Virus genome (UHGV): UHGV-0110803
Strand: one strand, 5' to 3'
DNA from: a virus
DNA: 29,302 nucleotides
Every line of letters begins with the position of its first letter. The stretch's first letter is position 1. Below the pieces are notes generated by a model that did not search any database, was not told the origin of the DNA, and saw only the letters and a program-made list of their open reading frames with translations. Positions 2,203 to 27,214 of the stretch are shown one piece after another. Both the position numbers and the translations under genes were made by a program.

Positions 2203-4824
2203 TTATCGTCCTGATTGCTGGCCGTTCTGGAAAATGTTAATCAGGTTGTCGCGCTGACTTTCTGCGCTGTATTCCTTAGACTGTCCGGGAGTATATTTCA
2301 CCGGAGTATCAATGAACTTGGTAATGCGGTTCCATACTGATCGGTTGGTTGTTCCCAGTTTCGCCAGATCGTTGAACGGCACCGTAATCGGGTTGCCGTC
2401 GGCACCGTTGACGATCAGCCCGTTGAGCATCAGGGTAAGTCCTGTTTCGTCGCTGTTGGTAACCCACTGCGCATTATCACGAATGCGGGAGATACTCTGC
2501 TCACGGTTGACCTCATCAGGTAGCCTTGGGTCACCAATAAGCGGCATAATCTGATCTGCTGACAGGTTTTTCAGATACGCATTGGCACCATCGTTAACGT
2601 CACGAATATCTACCCCTGCACGATTAGGTAGCCGCCAAGTGCCATTGGTCTGGTACTGCTCGCCGAGAAGGTCCTGATACGCCTGTTTTGCTGCATCAGA
2701 CGCCGACATTCCGCGCTGCATGTAGTTGTAGGTCAAGCGTTTTCCCTGCTCGTTATAAATAGTCCAGTTTTCAGCACCATTTCTCTGAGGAATAAGAGTT
2801 GAAGAAAAATCTTTAAATTGATCTGTCCACGATGAGTCTGCACTGTCTGCCTGGTTTTTATCCAAACCAGATCTCAAATCAGAAGTAGGTACATTCCGTA
2901 TTTGCCACAACGCATCTGCTGCCCGTTGGTTTTCTGTAGACATTACAACCTTTAAAGCTGGGAATGCTTTATTTTGCACCTGCCGCATCACCTGATCCGA
3001 GTATTTGCCGAACGACTGCGCCACCGACTGAATGGCCTTTACGCTAGATTCCTGCGTGTTGTCAATACGCTGCAGTACGTCGTTGACCATGGACTCCGGT
3101 AAAACTTTTTTGCTCATTATCCCCAGGCGGTCTTTTTCAGACTGTATGCGGGAAACTAGGTATTCACCAGATGAAGGGTCATTCAGGTACTGCTGGAATG
3201 CAGCCTGCACAACCGGAGAGTTTTGTTGCAGCCATGCCCCCGGATCCGCTTCCCGCGCCTTCAGTACCTGCCCAAGCTTGACCTTTGCCGATGCATAAAG
3301 CTCTGCTTTGTATTTAAAGTCAGAGTCGTTTTCCTGCGGTGCCATTGCCTGCACGGCGGCGGTACCTTGCTGGACGTTGCCCTGCATAATGGTCTGATAA
3401 ACAGGTTGTAGCGTCATTGCCTGCTGGTATTGCTGGAAGGTTTTTTCCATCTGCAGGCGCTCGGCAGGCGCTGCCTGAAGCGGCATAACGGCGGCCCATT
3501 CGTGCGCTGAAATAGGCGTCACCTGCTTACCGGCCTCAATTTTGGATAGGTCGTCCTGCATTCGACTCTGTAGCGCAACGCGACCGGCTGAAGCCTGCAT
3601 GTCGTACATGCCAGCAACCTTGCTCATCATCTGCGACTTTTTGTCCGGACTCATGGCGTTCCAGAATGGCTGTGCGATGAGGTTTTCCATCGTCGCAGAT
3701 CCAGGAATAGCTCCAGCACTGCCAGTTACTTTTGCCACATAATTGCGCGTCTCGTCGTATGGGATAGCTGCGGCAAACTGGGCGTTACTGACTTCGCCTG
3801 TGCGCGGATCGCCAATCTGTTTAATCCAGCCGTCAACCTTTCCTGGGCCAGCGTTATAGGCAGCTACTGCCAGAACCGGGTTATTGTCGTATTTCTTCAT
3901 CTGCGCGCCGAAATAAGCTTGCCCCAAGCGGGCATTATAGCGCGGGTCATTCAACCATTTATCTCGGTCCCACGGCACGCCAGCAAGGCGGGCAGCTTCG
4001 GGGCCAGTATCTTCCGTCACCTGCGCTACGCCAACAGCGCCTTTTGGCGACACCAGAGGTGTTCCGTCCTTTCCGTACTGATTTCCGCCACTCTCCTGCC
4101 AGATTATTGCAGAGAATAACTGCGCCTCACTCGGTGTATCGGTTACCTCAATCTTGCCGTTCGGACCCATCATCTGTTGATACATCGGCACATACCACGC
4201 CTCCGCCGCACCGTTCGCGGCATTCTCGCGCCACGAAACCCAGTTCTGTTCAATCTCTTCCTGACTCTGGCCGTGGGCTTCGCCGTAAGCGATGATGCTA
4301 TGATATGCCTTCAATCCTGCCTGGTTTGCCATTGTCGGGTTACGGAACTGCATCGATAGGTTTTTTAGTGTCGCATCCTGCATATCCGCCTCATACTGGC
4401 GAACCTGTCCTATTTCGTACCTCCCGGCCTGCGTAGTGAACTGAATGCGCTGCTGCTGCGCCTGCTGCATGAAAGCATTACGAGCCTGTTCATCCGGCAG
4501 CGACATAGCCAGTTGTTCGACCTGAGCATCAAACTGCTGCGTATACTCCTGACCTTTTCCAATAGCATTTTTCCCTTTCAGGTTAAGCAAACCTGTTTCA
4601 GGGTTATTCAGCAGATCGCTGCCTGTCTGACTGAGTTTAAGGGATGCCTCCTGAACCATAGCAACATTCTCTTTCTGCCTGGCTTCACCATATGCCACCG
4701 CATACTGATCTGCGACATTCGCCAGCACCTGACCTGCTTGAGGAACATCGAAGGTCTGAAAACCACCGGTTTGCACACCACGACTTTGCACCTGGCGGCC
4801 GGATGTAGTAGGAACAACAGGCAT
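2203..4824 (-). CDS. Internal virion protein with lytic transglycosylase (SLT) domain (873 aa)
   Basis: SLT signature IIWQESGGNQ ... AYNAGPGKV inside a large virion-module ORF. Confidence 0.75.
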   Translation of the reverse strand: MPVVPTTSGRQVQSRGVQTGGFQTFDVPQAGQVLANVADQYAVAYGEARQKENVAMVQEASLKLSQTGSDLLNNPETGLLNLKGKNAIGKGQEYTQQFDAQVEQLAMSLPDEQARNAFMQQAQQQRIQFTTQAGRYEIGQVRQYEADMQDATLKNLSMQFRNPTMANQAGLKAYHSIIAYGEAHGQSQEEIEQNWVSWRENAANGAAEAWYVPMYQQMMGPNGKIEVTDTPSEAQLFSAIIWQESGGNQYGKDGTPLVSPKGAVGVAQVTEDTGPEAARLAGVPWDRDKWLNDPRYNARLGQAYFGAQMKKYDNNPVLAVAAYNAGPGKVDGWIKQIGDPRTGEVSNAQFAAAIPYDETRNYVAKVTGSAGAIPGSATMENLIAQPFWNAMSPDKKSQMMSKVAGMYDMQASAGRVALQSRMQDDLSKIEAGKQVTPISAHEWAAVMPLQAAPAERLQMEKTFQQYQQAMTLQPVYQTIMQGNVQQGTAAVQAMAPQENDSDFKYKAELYASAKVKLGQVLKAREADPGAWLQQNSPVVQAAFQQYLNDPSSGEYLVSRIQSEKDRLGIMSKKVLPESMVNDVLQRIDNTQESSVKAIQSVAQSFGKYSDQVMRQVQNKAFPALKVVMSTENQRAADALWQIRNVPTSDLRSGLDKNQADSADSSWTDQFKDFSSTLIPQRNGAENWTIYNEQGKRLTYNYMQRGMSASDAAKQAYQDLLGEQYQTNGTWRLPNRAGVDIRDVNDGANAYLKNLSADQIMPLIGDPRLPDEVNREQSISRIRDNAQWVTNSDETGLTLMLNGLIVNGADGNPITVPFNDLAKLGTTNRSVWNRITKFIDTPVKYTPGQSKEYSAESQRDNLINIFQNGQQSGR

Positions 4825-14031: not shown

Positions 14032-14099
14032 ATCAATGACTCCGTACGCAATTAAATTATTACCAATTTAACCACATATGATTTATTTATCGTAGGCAG

Positions 14100-14136
14100 T
14101 TGACATTTAATGCGCGAATTATTACCTTTGAGGTAA
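14100..14136 (+). promoter_or_regulatory. Putative promoter region for the tRNA/moron cassette: TTGACA, AATTAT, then palindrome TTACCTTTGAGGTAA (14122-14136)
   Basis: TTGACA at 14100-14105; the decamer AATTATTACC is shared with the pL-like promoter; the -35 to -10 spacing is suboptimal (11 bp). Confidence 0.4.
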
Positions 14137-14458: not shown

Positions 14459-14535
14459 GTGGCATTAGCTCAGTTGGACAGAGCAACCGCCTTCTAAGCG
14501 GTTGGTCGCAGGTTCGAATCCTGCATGCCACGCCA
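14459..14535 (+). tRNA. tRNA-Arg (anticodon UCU), CCA encoded
   Basis: Cloverleaf folded by hand: acceptor GTGGCAT/ATGCCAC, D-stem GCTC/GAGC, anticodon stem ACCGC/GCGGT with loop CTTCTAA, T-arm GCAGG-TTCGAAT-CCTGC, discriminator G, CCA. Confidence 0.85.
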
Positions 14536-14578: not shown

Positions 14579-14620
14579 GGCGGTGATGGTTTCCCTTGAA
14601 GGACTATCACCGCCCTTTTT
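14579..14620 (+). terminator. Hairpin plus T-tract 3' of the tRNA (GGCGGTGAT ... ATCACCGCC CTTTTT)
   Basis: 9-bp perfect stem followed by a T-run; functional on the plus strand only. Confidence 0.45.
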
Positions 14621-16720: not shown

Positions 16721-17313
16721 TGATTACCATCCTGACGTTCTTTGAGTCGCTTCCTGGCTGCTGCTATGCGATCAGCAATTGTCACATTCACATTAACATC
16801 CAGACGTTCTTTGAACGCGTTGACATCAACATGCTTACCAATCAGCTCAAGGTTCTTCACCTTGTCAGGCCATTTAATTTTTTTGAGGATTGTCTCTATC
16901 GAATCCTCGTTCATGTTCATGATGGTCGATGACAGATCAAAGCCACTAAGCGTAGTGCGCCAGATTTTCGGCCACTCACGGATTGGTTTAAGGCTCCCAT
17001 CGTCGTTGAGGATGTCGATCACGTCCATCTGGTCGATCTCCACCAGGCGCATGAGAACGTAATCAGCACTGACGCGCATTCGTTTGTTGCGCTCCTCCAT
17101 CAACTCGGCAATCCGTTTTTGAATGCGTTCATCGCGCATCATGACACTGGCTTTAACTGCCGCTGTATTTGGGGAGAATCCTGCGTTAATCGCTGCCTGA
17201 GTCTGGTTTTCAGGCGTTTTGATGTATGACTGGCAATAAGCCTCCTGCATTGCTGTTAGTGGCTTAAATTGCGTTGATTTGCGTTTATAGGTTTTAGGTT
17301 CAGCAGGCATCAT
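16717..17313 (-). CDS. terS: Terminase small subunit (about 198 aa from tandem ATG ATG; track ORF starts at an upstream TTG)
   Basis: Motif LTAMQEAYCQSYIK ... QTQAAINAGFS typical of small terminase HTH region; AAGGTGG RBS before the ATG pair. Confidence 0.8.
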   Translation of the reverse strand: MMPAEPKTYKRKSTQFKPLTAMQEAYCQSYIKTPENQTQAAINAGFSPNTAAVKASVMMRDERIQKRIAELMEERNKRMRVSADYVLMRLVEIDQMDVIDILNDDGSLKPIREWPKIWRTTLSGFDLSSTIMNMNEDSIETILKKIKWPDKVKNLELIGKHVDVNAFKERLDVNVNVTIADRIAAARKRLKERQDGNQ

Positions 17314-17330
17314 AACCACCTTGGTAATAG

Positions 17331-17353
17331 TTACCGTTGTGGTAATAGTACCA
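17331..17353 (-). promoter_or_regulatory. Palindrome TTACCGTTGTGGTAA fused to an extended -10 (TGG TACTAT on the minus strand) upstream of terS
   Basis: Perfect half-sites; the -10 hexamer shares its last base with the palindrome, the same geometry as three other promoters in the window. Confidence 0.5.
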
Positions 17354-17354
17354 T

Positions 17355-17382
17355 GCAAAATAAAGCCGCCATAGTTGGCGGC
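17355..17382 (-). terminator. Intrinsic terminator after the 70-aa gene (GCCGCC-AACTAT-GGCGGC then TTTATTTTG on the minus strand)
   Basis: 6-bp GC stem plus U-tract, located 5 nt after the stop codon. Confidence 0.55.
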
Positions 17383-17387
17383 AGTAT

Positions 17388-17600
17388 TCAAAGTCCATCA
17401 AATTCATCGTAAAAACTCTCGTCAAGATACCCTTCCCATTTACCGCGAATGAAAATTACATCCTCGCCGCAAGGGTGCTGACTGTCGATAACTATATCCC
17501 TCCTGGCGCAACCATACTTATGCATGAGAAATTTAACCTCTTTCGGAAAATTTGCTGAGTTATCTCTCATATCTTCAAGGTCGTAGCGTATTTTTGGCAT
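17388..17600 (-). CDS. Hypothetical small protein (70 aa from ATG)
   Basis: GAAGGTG RBS; the GTGACATGTCAC palindrome lies immediately upstream. Confidence 0.4.
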   Translation of the reverse strand: MPKIRYDLEDMRDNSANFPKEVKFLMHKYGCARRDIVIDSQHPCGEDVIFIRGKWEGYLDESFYDEFDGL

Positions 17601-17609
17601 AACACCTTC

Positions 17610-17621
17610 GTGACATGTCAC
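17610..17621. repeat. Perfect 12-bp palindrome GTGACATGTCAC, copy B
   Basis: Sits exactly at the junction between the 113-aa gene stop and the RBS of the 70-aa gene. Confidence 0.8.
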
Positions 17622-17959
17622 ACTATTAATTTCGTTTCATGCCAGCCTTTAGTCACCCAGCATTGCGAGTCACCATTACACGGGCATGAATTCACAGGAA
17701 CTCTCTCGCCGCACTTACCGCAACGTTTTCTGCTGATCGATTTTATACGCCCGCGCACGCGTGCATCATCCTGGCGGATCAGTAACGCTATATACTCACC
17801 AAATTCGTAAGGCGCACGCCCGGGGCGACGTGTGGCACAGTTACGCTCCAGCATTTCAATTTCCTGAGCATCAAGCACAATCTCCAGCTTACGCACACCA
17901 GATGCAGCTTGTCTGGCTCTCTGAGCGGCTTTGCGCTCTGCTGCTGATTTAGCCATCAA
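17618..17959 (-). CDS. Hypothetical protein with basic N-terminus and Cys-rich C-terminus (113 aa)
   Basis: C-terminal CGKCG ... CPCNG ... C cluster suggests a zinc-ribbon; no family assigned. Confidence 0.45.
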   Translation of the reverse strand: MMAKSAAERKAAQRARQAASGVRKLEIVLDAQEIEMLERNCATRRPGRAPYEFGEYIALLIRQDDARVRGRIKSISRKRCGKCGERVPVNSCPCNGDSQCWVTKGWHETKLIV

Positions 17960-20807: not shown

Positions 20808-21152
20808 TCAGAACTCTTCGATGTTCCAGCCACCACCTGCTTTCTTTGGTTTAACCGTTACCCCGATGATTCGGAACGGATACTGATCTGCGGCGACTTT
20901 GGTTTTCACCCTGGCGTCGTCGGTCCAGAAACCTTTCACTTCGTGCAGTTCCATCTCGCCGGTGGCGAGCATCACAGCAAAATCGGGCGTATAGAACGTG
21001 TTGTCAGCTAACCGCAGCTTGATACCCTCAAATCGATACCAGACGATTTCTCCTGCACGTTTACGCAGCTCAAGGTGCTGGCAATACGCAGATTCTGTTT
21101 TGTTCATCTGGCCTGTTTTGAGTCGACCAAGAGCCTGTATCTGTTTTCTCAT
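20808..21152 (-). CDS. DUF1064-like small PD-(D/E)xK-type protein (114 aa)
   Basis: Pattern YTPDFAV ... ELHEVKG; its RBS GAGGT lies inside the palindrome at 21156-21170. Confidence 0.5.
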   Translation of the reverse strand: MRKQIQALGRLKTGQMNKTESAYCQHLELRKRAGEIVWYRFEGIKLRLADNTFYTPDFAVMLATGEMELHEVKGFWTDDARVKTKVAADQYPFRIIGVTVKPKKAGGGWNIEEF

Positions 21153-21155
21153 GAT

Positions 21156-21232
21156 TTACCTCTTAGGTAATTAAAAACCACATAAGACACGAAATCAATA
21201 GAGTTTAGAATATTTTGTTACCTGATAGGTAA
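21156..21232 (-). promoter_or_regulatory. Minus-strand promoter with two perfect palindromes: TTACCTGATAGGTAA (21218-21232), -35 TTGATT, 17-bp spacer, -10 TTTAAT fused to TTACCTCTTAGGTAA (21156-21170)
   Basis: Same geometry as the pL-like promoter: site, 19 bp, -35, 17 bp, -10 sharing one base with the second site; 62 bp centre to centre. Confidence 0.55.
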
Positions 21233-21244
21233 TCATTGAGGCGT

Positions 21245-21264
21245 AAAAAAATGCGCTATCGCGC
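21245..21264 (-). terminator. Weak intrinsic terminator after the P-like gene (GCGC-GATA-GCGC then TTTTTTT on the minus strand)
   Basis: Short GC stem plus 7-U tract directly after the stop codon. Confidence 0.35.
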
Positions 21265-22070: not shown

Positions 22071-22867
22071 GCTTCAGGGCTGTTCCAGTGCGGAACGTTG
22101 TTATCAGGTAATGTTGATTGCTTCTGTCTGCTAATCTGCAGCCTCCTTGCCAGCTTCTGCTCCCACTGTGCCTGATGGTATGCCTTACCCTCAGCCATCC
22201 AGTAAATTCTGAACTCTGCAAGTTCCTGTGCCGTTGGCAGACTGTCCAGGTAGATCCCCTGCAATGAGCTTTTCCGAAGAAAGTCATCTGATGGTTGCCA
22301 TTGTTCATGCATGACAAATTTGCCTAATTGCCCTGGCCCACCAGGAGGAACAAAGTTATTCATCACGGCGTTGTTTGCGCCGGGGTCATGAGACACAGAA
22401 TCCCCGTTTTTTGTCCTGCTCTCCCTCTCTTGGTTAAATGACTGGTTATATGACTGGTTCTGGATCCCGTTTTTGGGATCATTCAACATCCCGTTTTTGG
22501 GATCATTCAACATCCCGTTTTTGGGTATATTCCCGTTTTCGGTAAAATTACCGTTTTCGGGTTCATTACCCCCTTCCCGGTTGCCTTTAATGTTCCCGTT
22601 TTTGGTTATATTAAGAGAGAAAACCCGCACTCTTTTTGTCGCTCCCTTTCTCTCTCCGGTATCTGAAATAAGCCCCATTTTCATGAGCGATATAAGCCCG
22701 GCCTGCACGGTTTTTTTATTCAGGCAAGTGTCTTTAACGAGGCGTTCTATGCTGGGGTAGCAGAGGTTATATTCATCGGCTCTGTCAGCCATCGAGAGCA
22801 GTATGAGCTTTAATGATGAGCTACCTGGATCTGTCTCCCAGGCCCAATCTGTTGCATGTCTGCTCAT
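22052..22867 (-). CDS. Replication initiator, O-like (N-terminal winged-HTH, internal iteron-encoded repeats), 271 aa
   Basis: N-terminal HTH-type segment, internal peptide repeats encoded by the DNA iterons, 19-nt overlap with the P-like gene. Confidence 0.7.
   Translation of the reverse strand: MSRHATDWAWETDPGSSSLKLILLSMADRADEYNLCYPSIERLVKDTCLNKKTVQAGLISLMKMGLISDTGERKGATKRVRVFSLNITKNGNIKGNREGGNEPENGNFTENGNIPKNGMLNDPKNGMLNDPKNGIQNQSYNQSFNQERESRTKNGDSVSHDPGANNAVMNNFVPPGGPGQLGKFVMHEQWQPSDDFLRKSSLQGIYLDSLPTAQELAEFRIYWMAEGKAYHQAQWEQKLARRLQISRQKQSTLPDNNVPHWNSPEAWEDFL
22464..22612. repeat. Iteron array (putative replication origin) inside the O-like gene
   Basis: ATCCCGTTTTTGGGATCATTCAAC twice in perfect tandem followed by four degenerate CCCGTTTT(T/C)GG units; flanked by AGAGAGAAA/TTTCTCTCT inverted repeats. 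Confidence 0.65.
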
Positions 22868-23083: not shown

Positions 23084-23163
23084 GGTAAGCCCTGTTATTA
23101 GTATTGGGATTACGGTTATTTTGTGCTGACACAAAAAAAAGATCAACCATATTTGGTTTTTTA

Positions 23164-23178
23164 TTACCTTTGAGGTAC
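23164..23178. promoter_or_regulatory. Operator-like palindrome TTACCTTTGAGGTAC (one mismatch) just downstream of the tR1-like terminator
   Basis: 14 of 15 bp identical to the site at 14122-14136. Confidence 0.45.
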
Positions 23179-23233: not shown

Positions 23234-23464
23234 TCATGAGTAGAAGAAGTATGCCAGTTCTGCTTTTGAGCGCAGCCATTGTCTTGATTTACAGGCTTTA
23301 AAAAGCCCATCCATCAATACATTACCTGGCATTTTGCGCTTACCTGTTAAGTGAGTCTGGATATAGTGACTCGTCGTTCCGGCTTCCTGTGCGAAGGCTT
23401 CACGCTCATCCGGAGTAAGTGCAAGCCAGTGCTTTTTGAAATCGAAATGTCCGTTATCGCTCAT
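23234..23464 (-). CDS. Cro-like HTH regulator (76 aa)
   Basis: HTH-like segment AFAQEAGTTSHYIQTHLTGKRK; divergent from the repressor gene across an operator cluster. Confidence 0.55.
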   Translation of the reverse strand: MSDNGHFDFKKHWLALTPDEREAFAQEAGTTSHYIQTHLTGKRKMPGNVLMDGLFKACKSRQWLRSKAELAYFFYS

Positions 23465-23500: not shown

Positions 23501-23563
23501 TCACCCATAAGGTAACAAAAATCAAGGATAGTTACCCATGAGGTGCATTTACCTGTTGGGTAA
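23501..23563. promoter_or_regulatory. Operator cluster of three TTACC-N5-GGTAA-type palindromes between the divergent regulator genes
   Basis: TCACCCATAAGGTAA (23501-23515), TTACCCATGAGGTGC (23532-23546), TTACCTGTTGGGTAA (23549-23563). Confidence 0.6.
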
Positions 23564-23618: not shown

Positions 23619-24203
23619 ATGAAAAGTATCCAGGACGTCCGCAGGCAAAATCTCAACGACTTGATCGACCGTGAATTCAATGGTGTTCAGACGCGGATGG
23701 CAGAAAAACTTGGAACTCAGGCAAATCTGGTAAACCGCTGGGCTCTTGGCAAGAAGGTTATCGGCGACCAGGTTGCGCGAAAAATTGAAGCTGCCGCCAA
23801 TAAACCACGTAACTGGCTTGATATCGATCGCTCGCTTTCTCAGGAAGGTTTTCAGCCTGTCGGCCCAAGCGACATTGGTCAGCTGGCGGCTCACAACCTG
23901 GAACGCTGGATGAGCGAAAGCCGCGACCTTTCAACTCAGGGAAAACTTCACCGCGCATCCGGCGTCGCCCAGGTGACAATCAGCCGCCTGTTAAACAATG
24001 AGGTCAGCGTTTCCATTTCCACCCTGGAGAATGTTGCATCCGCATTCGGGCGTCACGGCTATGAATTACTGATTCACCCGCACGACCCTGCGACCATCAA
24101 CTATGACCGCTCGCGCTACGCATTGTTACCCGAAACCGAGAAAGCAAAGATCGAAAGTTACATTGAATTTGTCATCAACCAGAACGAAAAAAACAAACAA
24201 TAA
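23619..24203 (+). CDS. Prophage repressor candidate with two HTH motifs and no peptidase domain (194 aa)
   Basis: Two XRE-type HTH segments (QTRMAEKLGTQANLVNRW and ASGVAQVTISRLLNN); no Ala-Gly/Ser-Lys autocleavage signature seen. Confidence 0.6.
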   Translation: MKSIQDVRRQNLNDLIDREFNGVQTRMAEKLGTQANLVNRWALGKKVIGDQVARKIEAAANKPRNWLDIDRSLSQEGFQPVGPSDIGQLAAHNLERWMSESRDLSTQGKLHRASGVAQVTISRLLNNEVSVSISTLENVASAFGRHGYELLIHPHDPATINYDRSRYALLPETEKAKIESYIEFVINQNEKNKQ

Positions 24204-24223: not shown

Positions 24224-24250
24224 AAGCCGCCTTCTGGCGGCTTTTTTATT
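24224..24250 (+). terminator. Intrinsic terminator after the repressor gene (AAGCCGCC-TTCT-GGCGGCTT then TTTTATT)
   Basis: 8-bp stem plus T-tract. Confidence 0.65.
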
Positions 24251-24260
24251 GCCTATACTG

Positions 24261-24337
24261 TTACCTAATAGGTAATTTTCTTAACTCATATCTATTGACA
24301 TCAAACCAAATACGCATAATTATTACCTCAACGGTAA
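24261..24337 (+). promoter_or_regulatory. pL-like promoter: palindrome TTACCTAATAGGTAA (24261-24275), -35 TTGACA (24295-24300), 17-bp spacer, -10 AATTAT fused to TTACCTCAACGGTAA (24323-24337)
   Basis: Consensus -35; two perfect palindromes 62 bp apart centre to centre. Confidence 0.6.
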
Positions 24338-24356: not shown

Positions 24357-24509
24357 ATGCAGTGGAAAATCATCAACGGTTGGTACTGCGTTACTGCATG
24401 CGGATTCATGAGTTGGAAGTTTCGCACCTTACAGGAAGGCATTAAGTGGGCTTTCGTCAGCAAAGAAGCTCGCGATGTGGCCAACGATAACGAGATATGG
24501 GAGGGCTGA
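24357..24509 (+). CDS. Small Trp-rich protein (50 aa), first gene of the pL-like operon; not in the ORF track
   Basis: GAGGT RBS 8 nt before the ATG; frame translated by hand to TGA at 24507-24509. Confidence 0.35.
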   Translation: MQWKIINGWYCVTACGFMSWKFRTLQEGIKWAFVSKEARDVANDNEIWEG

Positions 24510-24511
24510 TA

Positions 24512-24811
24512 ATGAACGTTAATCAGCAGAAAAATCTTCAAAAAATCATGCTGGCATTCGACAAGGACTACCGCCTGTCAGAACAGCTATATGACCGACA
24601 AGTTGAACTGATTGAGAGCATCCGACTTCATCAACTGTCCTCAACTTTCGACGTTGTAACAGGCAAAGGCGTTCGTCAGGAAGTGCTGGAGGCTGCTAAA
24701 GACAGCCCTGAGTTCGAAGAACTGATGGATGCCTACCGGCGCGAGGCAATGGCAATTATAGCGCGCTGGGATCTGGCGGATCAGCTTGATGGGCAGAGGG
24801 ACGCGGCATGA
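24512..24811 (+). CDS. Hypothetical protein (99 aa from the internal ATG)
   Basis: GGAGGG RBS 7 nt before the ATG at 24512; 4-nt overlap with the exonuclease gene. Confidence 0.5.
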   Translation: MNVNQQKNLQKIMLAFDKDYRLSEQLYDRQVELIESIRLHQLSSTFDVVTGKGVRQEVLEAAKDSPEFEELMDAYRREAMAIIARWDLADQLDGQRDAA

Positions 24812-26914: not shown

Positions 26915-27214
26915 GTGAGAAAGTTAAGCCGACTTGAAAAATATCACATGAACAAGGTTTCAATGCGCAGTCCGTCAAAGATTGTCGCCGTTACTCCTGC
27001 GGCGATAGAGATCGAAAAACGCGCGATTGAAAGAGAGAAAAAAGGGCAGTTCCGCATTGCCGCTCACCTTTGGCTTCAGTGTATGGATGTTGCTTCTGGT
27101 GATGTTGAGCGTGCAAGGATCGCGGTTCGCAGGGACCAATGTATCACAAAAGGTAACGGCCTTCGCCGTGGCGACTATAGCGGCATAGGATGTTGTGGGG
27201 TGGTTTATGACTAA
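26915..27214 (+). CDS. Small hypothetical protein, possibly ANR-like regulator (start uncertain: GTG at 26915 or ATG at 26963)
   Basis: Segment FRIAAHLWLQCMDVA ... ERARIAVRRDQC; assignment is tentative. Confidence 0.35.
   Translation: MRKLSRLEKYHMNKVSMRSPSKIVAVTPAAIEIEKRAIEREKKGQFRIAAHLWLQCMDVASGDVERARIAVRRDQCITKGNGLRRGDYSGIGCCGVVYD

Follow-up and report, generated by a model that had tools for sequence, protein, structure and literature searches.

The window analysed here, a stretch of 29 302 nucleotides taken at its full length, is an epsilon15/phiV10-like prophage of the genus Uetakevirus, a temperate podovirus, and extends from the virion genes as far as the integrase. A region of 5 kb around the promoters described below is about 98% identical to the Escherichia phages phiV10, vB_EcoP_PAS61 and phiv142-3. 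The repressor gene rep is followed by a divergent cro-like gene, by the replication genes and then by a DUF1064 gene. On the opposite side of rep lies the early-left operon, with RecE/RecT, AlpA-like and PerC-like genes and a methylase. Further putative regulators encoded by the phage are the phrog_536 protein (17618-17959) and the PerC-like protein (26915-27214). The genes and RNA features to which the text refers are the following.

23619-24203, plus strand: rep, prophage repressor of 194 aa (N-terminal HTH, HTH_3-like middle domain, C-terminal domain)
23234-23464, minus strand: Cro-like small regulator of 76 aa, divergent from rep (phrog_35 'transcriptional repressor', E 3.5e-12)
20808-21152, minus strand: DUF1064 gene, after the replication genes, with its ATG at 21152
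14459-14535, plus strand: tRNA-Arg(TCT), the sole Rfam match in the search at the sites
14579-14614, plus strand: terminator beyond tRNA-Arg

The rep gene is placed between two promoters, PM, which precedes the DUF1064-led operon, and PL, which precedes the early-left operon. Each is bracketed by two copies of the 15-bp palindrome TTACCN5GGTAA, here called operators because they are putative binding sites of Rep. The components of the two modules are listed in the order of transcription.

PM module:
21245-21264, minus strand: weak hairpin GCGC-GATA-GCGC followed by seven T, ending 12 nt before the upstream operator (-8.4 kcal/mol, z -1.55)
21218-21232, minus strand: putative upstream operator TTACCTATCAGGTAA, exact TTACCN5GGTAA, centred at about -62; its epsilon15 homologue (35906-35922) is annotated 'protein_bind repressor'
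21217-21199, minus strand: spacer of 19 bp from the upstream operator to the -35 hexamer
21193-21198, minus strand: -35 hexamer TTGATT, 19 bp after the upstream operator and with an invariant CTA in front
21192-21176, minus strand: spacer of 17 bp from the -35 to the -10 hexamer
21170-21175, minus strand: -10-like hexamer TTTAAT, without A at -11, its last T also being the first of the downstream operator
21156-21170, minus strand: putative downstream operator TTACCTAAGAGGTAA, over predicted positions -7 to +8; the pair is kept in all eight genomes compared

PL module:
24224-24243, plus strand: strong rep terminator, 17 nt before the upstream operator (-21.1 kcal/mol, z -5.9)
24261-24275, plus strand: putative upstream operator TTACCTAATAGGTAA; its epsilon15 homologue (32616-32632) is annotated 'repressor'
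24295-24323, plus strand: PL-like sigma-70 promoter TTGACA-17-AATTAT (TTGACA 24295-24300, AATTAT 24318-24323), 19 bp after the upstream operator
24323-24337, plus strand: putative downstream operator TTACCTCAACGGTAA, over -10/+1; its epsilon15 homologue is the annotated site 32554-32570

A sequence-only reading of this DNA had claimed that the two promoters share one geometry. Read directly at these positions, both indeed consist of an operator, 19 bp, TTGAnn, 17 bp and a hexamer, and at both the last T of the -10 hexamer is also the first T of the downstream palindrome. The two operators of each pair are 62 bp apart from centre to centre, which is 5.9 turns at 10.5 bp per turn. The downstream operator lies on the -10/+1 region, as the same reading had it: it overlaps the conserved promoter core TTGA-17-NNNNAT and the predicted start. 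At PM the right half of this operator also supplies the Shine-Dalgarno sequence AGAGG, 3 nt ahead of the ATG at 21152, so that the predicted leader is only about 11 nt long; the ATG downstream of PL is at 24357. A/T tracts adjoin the upstream operator on its promoter side (TTTTTT in PL, AAAATAT in PM). Since the likeness of the two modules extends beyond the operators, to the CTA before TTGA and to a T-run followed by A..GCCT before the upstream operator, they are likely to have a common origin.

The motif is not confined to the two modules. With at most one mismatch, TTACCN5GGTAA occurs 10 times in the window (seven exact copies and three with one mismatch) against 0.52 expected, and none of 100 shuffled sequences reached 10. 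An eleventh copy, with two mismatches, at 23532-23546 brings the number of sites between rep and cro to three. Operators are spread over every operon of the genome, with 10-15 sites. The motif ATGTGGTT has no significance on its own within the window. The sites outside the two modules are as follows.

23501-23563, no strand assigned: rep-cro operator region, with sites at 23501-23515 (one mismatch), 23532-23546 (two mismatches) and 23549-23563 (exact)
23164-23178, minus strand: operator with one mismatch, between the cro terminator, which it follows directly, and the replication genes downstream; kept in phiV10 (33112) and Tyrion (35365)
17313-17353, minus strand: terS promoter, with the extended -10 TGGTACTAT at 17353-17345 fused to an operator at 17345-17331
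14122-14136, no strand assigned: operator between the head operon (minus strand) and the plus-strand tRNA-Arg unit; its epsilon15 homologue (2931-2947) is annotated 'repressor'

In the rep-cro region, the site at 23501-23515 overlaps the -35 hexamer and the spacer of a PR-like promoter, TTGTTA-17-TATTAT. The three sites are 31 and 17 bp apart, and the same layout of 17 and 30/31 bp is found in epsilon15 and SPC32H. At terS, a second operator with one mismatch (17327-17313) lies 18 bp downstream of the first and overlaps the terS Shine-Dalgarno sequence; the counterpart site of epsilon15 (12-27) is annotated 'repressor'. The fusion of -10 hexamer and operator had been noticed at two further promoters besides PM and PL. 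It is present at terS, and the same TGnTACTAT fusion is found in phiV10, TL-2011b, Tyrion, epsilon15 and SPC32H. For the so-called moron promoter, near the tRNA-Arg unit, the string AATTATTACC does occur at 14117-14126, but the AATTAT in it (14117-14122) is probably not the -10 hexamer, since it lies 11 bp from the conserved TTGACA (14100-14105), which is not a sigma-70 geometry. The choice of hexamer was probably off by 6 bp: TACCTT (14123-14128) lies 17 bp from TTGACA and falls inside the operator 14122-14136. With a tRNA-Arg gene and a terminator downstream on the plus strand, a plus-strand promoter is likely here, with a -10 other than AATTAT. A second conserved palindrome-like motif, AACCATATATGGTT, is present at late promoters. 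We also considered whether the palindrome might act as an RNA hairpin and rejected this, because the 5-bp stem is too weak and the sites lie at or upstream of the predicted starts; the Rfam search at the sites returned no RNA family, only the tRNA.

The conservation of the pair was analysed in eight genomes from four host genera: the window, phiV10, TL-2011b, Tyrion, BUCT554, BUCT711, epsilon15 and SPC32H. The PL, PM, terS and head-operon sites align across all of them. The pair is present at both promoters in all eight, and 15 of the 16 pairs are exactly 62 bp apart, the remaining one, a Klebsiella PL pair, being at 63 bp. Other intergenic distances drift in the same genomes; the distance from the operator region to PL, for example, varies from 705 to 724 bp. 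A scan of IMG/VR for any two exact sites 47-77 bp apart gave at least 120 loci. The unique pairs among the matches listed comprise 96 at 62 bp, 11 at 63 bp, eight at 76 bp and four at 74 bp, with at most two at any other distance. When the matches listed are combined with the reference genomes there are 104 unique 62-bp pairs, and in 103 of these TTGA follows the upstream operator at a distance of exactly 19 bp, always in the same orientation; the single exception has TTGTAT in this position. Among the 101 of these 104 pairs that could be oriented and had enough flanking sequence, 53 are of the PM type and 48 of the PL type, and the spacer identity falls to 0.50 and 0.36, respectively, while the length is constant.

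The full 77-bp pattern is expected by chance about 0.004 times in 596 Gb. In a one-genome-per-species collection it was found 15 times in 12 stretches, all but one from Enterobacterales: Citrobacter, Pseudocitrobacter, Klebsiella, Kluyvera, Buttiauxella, Ca. Erwinia, Pseudescherichia and Superficieibacter, in addition to one Chryseobacterium contig. Rep homologues (38-75% identical to that of the window) and/or Cro homologues adjoin the match in 8 of the 11 Enterobacterales stretches; neither was found in the sequence available around the Klebsiella, Ca. Erwinia and second Pseudocitrobacter stretches. Among deposited phages, the PM module is found in Rep-encoding records only. Of 5426 complete E. 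coli genomes, 485 (about 9%) contain prophages with this promoter module.

The 62-bp spacing is therefore under strong conservation, and its invariance can be divided into three parts: the overlap of -10 hexamer and operator, the 17-bp spacer and a preferred distance of 19 bp from the upstream operator to the -35 hexamer. A spacer of 17 bp is the optimum for sigma-70 promoters, and the fixed distance between the -35 hexamer and the downstream operator is explained by promoter occlusion. A special explanation such as looping is needed only for the 19-bp part, which is strongly preferred and not absolute. The distance from TTGA to the downstream operator is constant in all variants. The length variants (61, 63 and 64 bp) change only the segment before the -35 hexamer, to 18, 20 and 21 bp, and most of them arise through the T-run beside the upstream operator. 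The 61- and 64-bp variants occur once each among more than 100 unique sequences listed, and a Klebsiella clade is fixed at 63 bp. Because this segment tolerates 18-21 bp, any requirement for phasing is not absolute. Variants of ±1 to 2 bp occur; none of +5 or +10 bp was found among the matches listed. Some of the invariance could come from an inherited cassette, but descent from a duplicated cassette alone was rejected as an explanation, since it does not account for the lack of insertions and deletions while the spacer identity drops to 0.36-0.50.

The quality of the two promoters differs. PL has hexamers near the sigma-70 consensus at a distance within 16-18 bp, and was the top match of a consensus promoter scan in the 10.7 kb scanned (10 of 12 positions). 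The scan showed no overall enrichment (nine found against 13 expected), so that the promoter calls rest on conservation and not on the scan. Within the PL class, the most frequent -35 hexamers are TTGACA (33) and TTGACT (10), and the most frequent -10 hexamers AATTAT (30) and AATCAT (9). For PM, the -35 hexamer TTGATT proposed by the earlier reading is correctly placed and conserved, but its TTTAAT is a non-canonical -10, with T in place of the near-invariant A at -11, and was not called by the scan. Against the same sigma-70 standard PM reads TTGATT-17-TTTAAT, with TAAATT at 18 bp as a shifted alternative in some relatives. The PM class has TTGATT (30), TTGAAA (10) and TTGATA (6) as -35 hexamers and TTTAAT (25), TTAAAT (22) and ATAAAT (4) as -10 hexamers; an A at -11 is almost absent. 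PM may therefore be weak, need an activator or use a hexamer shifted by 1-2 bp, and under any of these options the downstream operator still covers the -10/+1 region; its transcription may also start elsewhere.

Each promoter module is preceded by a terminator, at a conserved short distance before the upstream operator in both classes. Strong terminators (z -4.8 to -5.9) precede PL, terS and the post-cro site. The hairpin before PM is annotated in phiV10 as a putative rho-independent terminator, and GCGC..GCGCATTTTTTT is conserved in the PM class. A search with the IHF consensus showed no enrichment and no match between the operators of either pair, and IHF-assisted looping thus has no sequence support at PL and PM.

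The proposal that the palindromes are repressor operators agrees with the annotation of epsilon15 and with the Rep homologue encoded between the two promoters. The epsilon15 record (NC_004775.2) contains seven features named 'protein_bind: repressor (lysogeny)', all with the sequence (A)TTACC-N5-GGTAA(T), and they are placed as in the window: ahead of terS and of the head operon, in the region of PL, and beyond the replication genes. Rep of the window matches the structure of SPC32H Rep (PDB 5d50) with E 4e-42 over residues 1-190. Its Pfam matches are HTH_3 and a YdaS-like HTH, with no S24 peptidase domain. The protein is the same as phiV10 p40 (100% identity) and shares 42% identity with epsilon15 gp38. 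The Rep proteins of six phages are 42-78% identical to it, and in all of them the N-terminal HTH helix NLVNRW is invariant; this putative recognition helix fits the invariant half-site of the operators. The linker from the DNA-binding to the middle domain varies in length among Rep proteins, which is consistent with flexibility. The Cro-like protein, with 58-83% identity within the family and the HTH-like segment AGTTSHYIQ.HLT unchanged throughout, may be a second binder of the same operators, as in lambda. The ZX5 paper deals with a phage whose repressor is identical, and contains no definition of an operator.

In SPC32H Rep, an N-terminal domain is described as binding DNA, a middle domain as dimerising and a p53-like C-terminal domain as tetramerising; the DNA-bound form is reported to be a tetramer, whose DNA-binding domains form two pairs (PMC9638917, PMC9986798). 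In the trans model put forward for it, the domains that read one palindrome come from different dimers, and one tetramer is enough to repress (PMC9638917). The tetramerisation domain is presented as a p53-like 'TetDloop', a type of domain by which Rco of plasmid pLS20 loops DNA over 75 bp, and the pairs of middle domains are given as about 100 Å apart (PMC9986798). The antirepressor is reported to inactivate Rep (PMC9638917) and to disassemble it (PMC9638917, PMC9986798). The mode of gene repression by Rep is referred to in PMC9986798 as not extensively characterised.

Taken together, we consider it probable that each of the two sigma-70-type promoters is bracketed by two Rep operators, that the downstream one represses by occlusion and that, most likely, one tetramer bridges both. 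The two parts of this reading differ in strength. Repression by the site over -10/+1 is well supported: this operator covers the end of the -10 hexamer and the predicted start site, so that a bound repressor of the epsilon15 gp38/SPC32H Rep family would exclude RNA polymerase. For the sites at -62 and +1, a cooperative bridge formed by one Rep tetramer is a plausible hypothesis. The upstream operator near -62, beside the A/T tract, would be an auxiliary site, and one tetramer (or two interacting ones) would hold both operators and bend the 47 bp between them. At both promoters the operators have the arrangement expected for looping, with a spacing that is conserved and amounts to nearly a whole number of helical turns. 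A bridge is the most likely role of the upstream operator because the Rep tetramer, as reported for SPC32H, has its DNA-binding domains in two pairs. With two such units, two operators at each promoter, about six turns and a linker of variable length, one tetramer is the most economical form of it, in agreement with the cooperative or looping repression proposed by the sequence-only reading. The early-left operon (PL) and the DUF1064-led operon (PM) would thereby be repressed tightly and cooperatively, and the antirepressor would lift this repression in one step. The order terminator-operator-promoter-operator would constitute a conserved cassette insulating each lytic operon in the lysogen.

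Some observations count against a bridge. The 62 bp of DNA measure about 210 Å when straight, against the distance of about 100 Å between the middle-domain pairs of Rep, so that bridging would need strong bending or long linkers. In the same genomes other operator pairs are 17-18, 31 and 48 bp apart, and one rigid binding geometry cannot explain all of these. The main alternative to bridging is that the operators act independently: the downstream one would occlude the promoter, and the upstream one would block read-through from the terminator and/or cover the UP-element region from -40 to -60. The 62 bp would then be the sum of the sigma-70 spacer, the fixed overlap and an inherited 19-bp segment. 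Such an arrangement fits the terminator or hairpin with T-run close before the upstream operator in both classes, the rep transcripts that run toward PL in the lysogen and the A/T tracts on the promoter side of the upstream operator. It also fits the confinement of length variation to the 18-21 bp before the -35 hexamer, and the sites after the cro and terS-upstream terminators, which have no partner at 62 bp. We nevertheless regard it as unlikely. The T7 run beside the upstream operator of PL should be prone to slippage, yet the 61- and 64-bp variants are as rare as described above. The replication genes upstream of PM are silent in the lysogen and the hairpin there is weak, so that a roadblock is less needed at PM, yet the geometry is identical. 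Half of each reported Rep tetramer would, moreover, go unused.

Both a class I activator role and an unrelated binding factor are less likely than an independent upstream site. The position -62 is classic for class I activators, and the centre of the upstream operator falls near it if the start is 7 nt after the hexamer. A regulator bound there, either the Cro-like protein or Rep at low occupancy, might aid the polymerase in lytic growth, with the downstream site repressing only in the lysogen. The weak -10 hexamer of PM, without A at -11, could need such help, and the Cro-like protein is highly conserved, with its invariant HTH-like segment. However, PL has the same geometry, and its near-consensus TTGACA-17-AATTAT should need no activation; the figure of -62 depends on an inferred start and activation by Rep or the Cro-like protein is purely hypothetical, which together make this reading quite improbable. 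The slimmest chance is given to another binder, such as a host factor or a phrog_536 or PerC-like protein, the likeness to a repressor regulon then being coincidental. The binding of Rep to the palindromes is indeed deduced from homology and annotation, the phage encodes several further putative regulators, and the occurrence of AACCATATATGGTT at late promoters suggests that these regions are the target of at least two DNA-binding factors. Against such a binder are the three sites in the rep-cro intergenic region, in a lambda-like layout, the annotation of the epsilon15 counterparts as repressor sites, and the restriction of the module to Rep-encoding phages among deposited phages. The half-site is also invariant from Salmonella through Klebsiella to Buttiauxella, which fits a phage-borne factor with an invariant recognition helix.

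Going further than bridging by a Rep tetramer as stated above, the TetDloop of the tetramer might clamp the -62 and +1 sites into a micro-loop of 62 bp, the cassette being a portable locked insulator used twice per genome; a third version, with a half-site in the same register of 62 bp, may exist in the head/tRNA control region. We advance this only tentatively and hold it to be somewhat doubtful. If true, few natural phase-locked repression loops would be as short as this micro-loop, for whose repressor a crystal structure exists. Independently of this extension, the operator pair offers a concrete and cheap hypothesis for how a Rep tetramer shuts a promoter and an antirepressor opens it. The prophages that host the module carry O-antigen-modifying genes and have relatives across Enterobacterales. 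The module of about 120 bp (terminator, operator, promoter, operator) is also a compact natural part from which synthetic promoters under tight repression could be built.

By motif, position and cognate repressor, the feature belongs to the epsilon15/SPC32H family of Rep operators. It shares with the Rep/Ant switch of these phages (PDB 5d50/5d4z) the motif ATTACC-N5-GGTAAT, the genome positions, a homologous repressor and the genus Uetakevirus, and differs in that Rep of the window is only about 42% identical to the Salmonella proteins. The motif was known before, and the operators are already annotated in epsilon15. Of the two PM sites the epsilon15 record contains the upstream one alone, and it does not mention the paired geometry. 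In the sources on Rep covered here, namely the second-hand accounts in PMC9638917 and PMC9986798 and the GenBank annotation, the fixed -62/+1 pair at two promoters throughout the family does not seem to be described. The control proposed is of a known kind and testable, and changes no general principle of phage regulation.

As in lambda OL/OR, rep and cro are divergent with three operators between them, and a PL-like promoter downstream of the repressor gene has sites for the same repressor. PL here differs from that of lambda, where three operators adjoin one another, in being flanked by two at a distance of 62 bp; a lambda-type tripartite operator (three adjacent sites about 20-24 bp apart) was accordingly rejected for both PL and PM. 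The present phage also has sites in every operon, against two control regions in lambda, and its Rep is without an S24 peptidase domain. To our knowledge, no cleavage is involved in the inactivation of SPC32H Rep. The sites were also compared with stoperators of the mycobacteriophage L5 type, which are asymmetric, in one orientation and inside transcription units. This assignment was rejected, since the present sites are palindromic and lie at promoters or after terminators; the only feature shared is the genome-wide spread of 10-15 sites.

The operators O1 and O3 of LacI are 92 bp apart and OE and OI of GalR 113 bp, and lambda CI binds cooperatively to operators moved 5-6 turns apart. The likeness to these systems lies in an operator on the promoter with a second one a near-integral number of turns away, and in a repressor with two DNA-binding units. 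The loop here would differ from those of LacI and GalR in being very short and enclosing the whole promoter, and the protein family is unrelated. Rco of the Bacillus plasmid pLS20 is described as having the same combination of an N-terminal HTH and a C-terminal TetDloop and a similar repressor/antirepressor logic (PMC9986798). Its operators are direct-repeat arrays that bind several tetramers, whereas those of the window are single 15-bp palindromes and Rep has an extra middle dimerisation domain. The distances are nevertheless of similar size, 75 bp between the Rco operators and 62 bp here, and Rco is relieved by the anti-repressor Rap.

The central 5 bp of the operator palindrome (TTACC-N5-GGTAA) vary even among phages whose flanking 5 kb are approximately 98% identical, as seen when the modules at PM, the promoter of the DUF1064 gene (21156-21232), and at PL, the early-left promoter (24261-24337), are compared with those of phiV10 (L004) and of another relative (L008). 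The centre of the first site of PM, for example, may be TATCA, TAATG or TGATG, and over the 131 bp of the PM region identity to phiV10 is only 93%. The half-sites are fixed, and the centres are either unconstrained or diversifying. Virtually all 62-bp modules, in both classes, have the trinucleotide CTA directly 5' of the -35, with close to 2 bits at each position. It is not explained by any standard promoter element. Its positions in the window are:

21199-21201, CTA before the -35 of PM
24292-24294, CTA before the -35 of PL

The full 77-bp pattern has one exact match in a Bacteroidota genome, at 840-916 of the Chryseobacterium sp. c4a locus L133. This match is unexpected, because the chance expectation is about 0.004. 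It lacks both the CTA and the terminator features, and no homologue of Rep or Cro is encoded in the 8-kb locus.

Besides the operator, the window and phiV10 share another conserved motif, (A)A(C/T)CATAT(G/A)TGGTT:

14070-14083, window, minus strand
21176-21183, window, minus strand
about 23140-23153, window, minus strand
3305-3318, phiV10
20918-20931, phiV10
24735-24749, phiV10
33132-33145, phiV10

Copies are located at the head, tail-fibre, lysis and post-cro promoters, the lysis copy being a perfect palindrome (AACCATATATGGTT), and the spacer of PM holds one half of the motif (ATGTGGTT). At the late promoters, a -10-like hexamer lies 7 nt after the motif and the -35 is poor; this arrangement suggests that the motif serves a late activator, or else a second regulator.

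A conserved half-site (GGTAA/TTACC) at 14060-14064 is exactly in the 62-bp register with the single operator at 14122-14136. On the minus strand, the sequence of the would-be partner of this operator is TGGTTAAATTGGTAA (region 14060-14136). All 75 nt from this operator to the gp3-like gene are nearly invariant in the eight phages compared. Between terL and the head operon, a tRNA gene is encoded on the other strand from the structural genes, and a tRNA-Arg is annotated at the equivalent place in the SPC32H record:

14459-14535, plus strand, tRNA-Arg, anticodon TCT
14579-14614, plus strand, strong terminator after the tRNA

The mechanical terS ORF (region 17308-17391, minus strand) begins at TTG 17391 and spans a terminator as well as the promoter and the two operators. 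The true start is probably ATG 17310 (or 17313), immediately 3' of a Shine-Dalgarno sequence located within the second terS operator. The short version is annotated in Tyrion and epsilon15, and the long one in the phiV10 RefSeq record.

An iteron of about 24 bp (ATCCCGTTTTTGGGATCATTCAAC) is repeated in five to six copies at 22464-22616 (plus strand), within the replication-initiator gene, and this array is probably the phage origin. The core of the iteron is CCC-N-GGG around a T-run and bears a loose resemblance to the Rep operator; a TTACC or GGTAA half is present in two of the copies.
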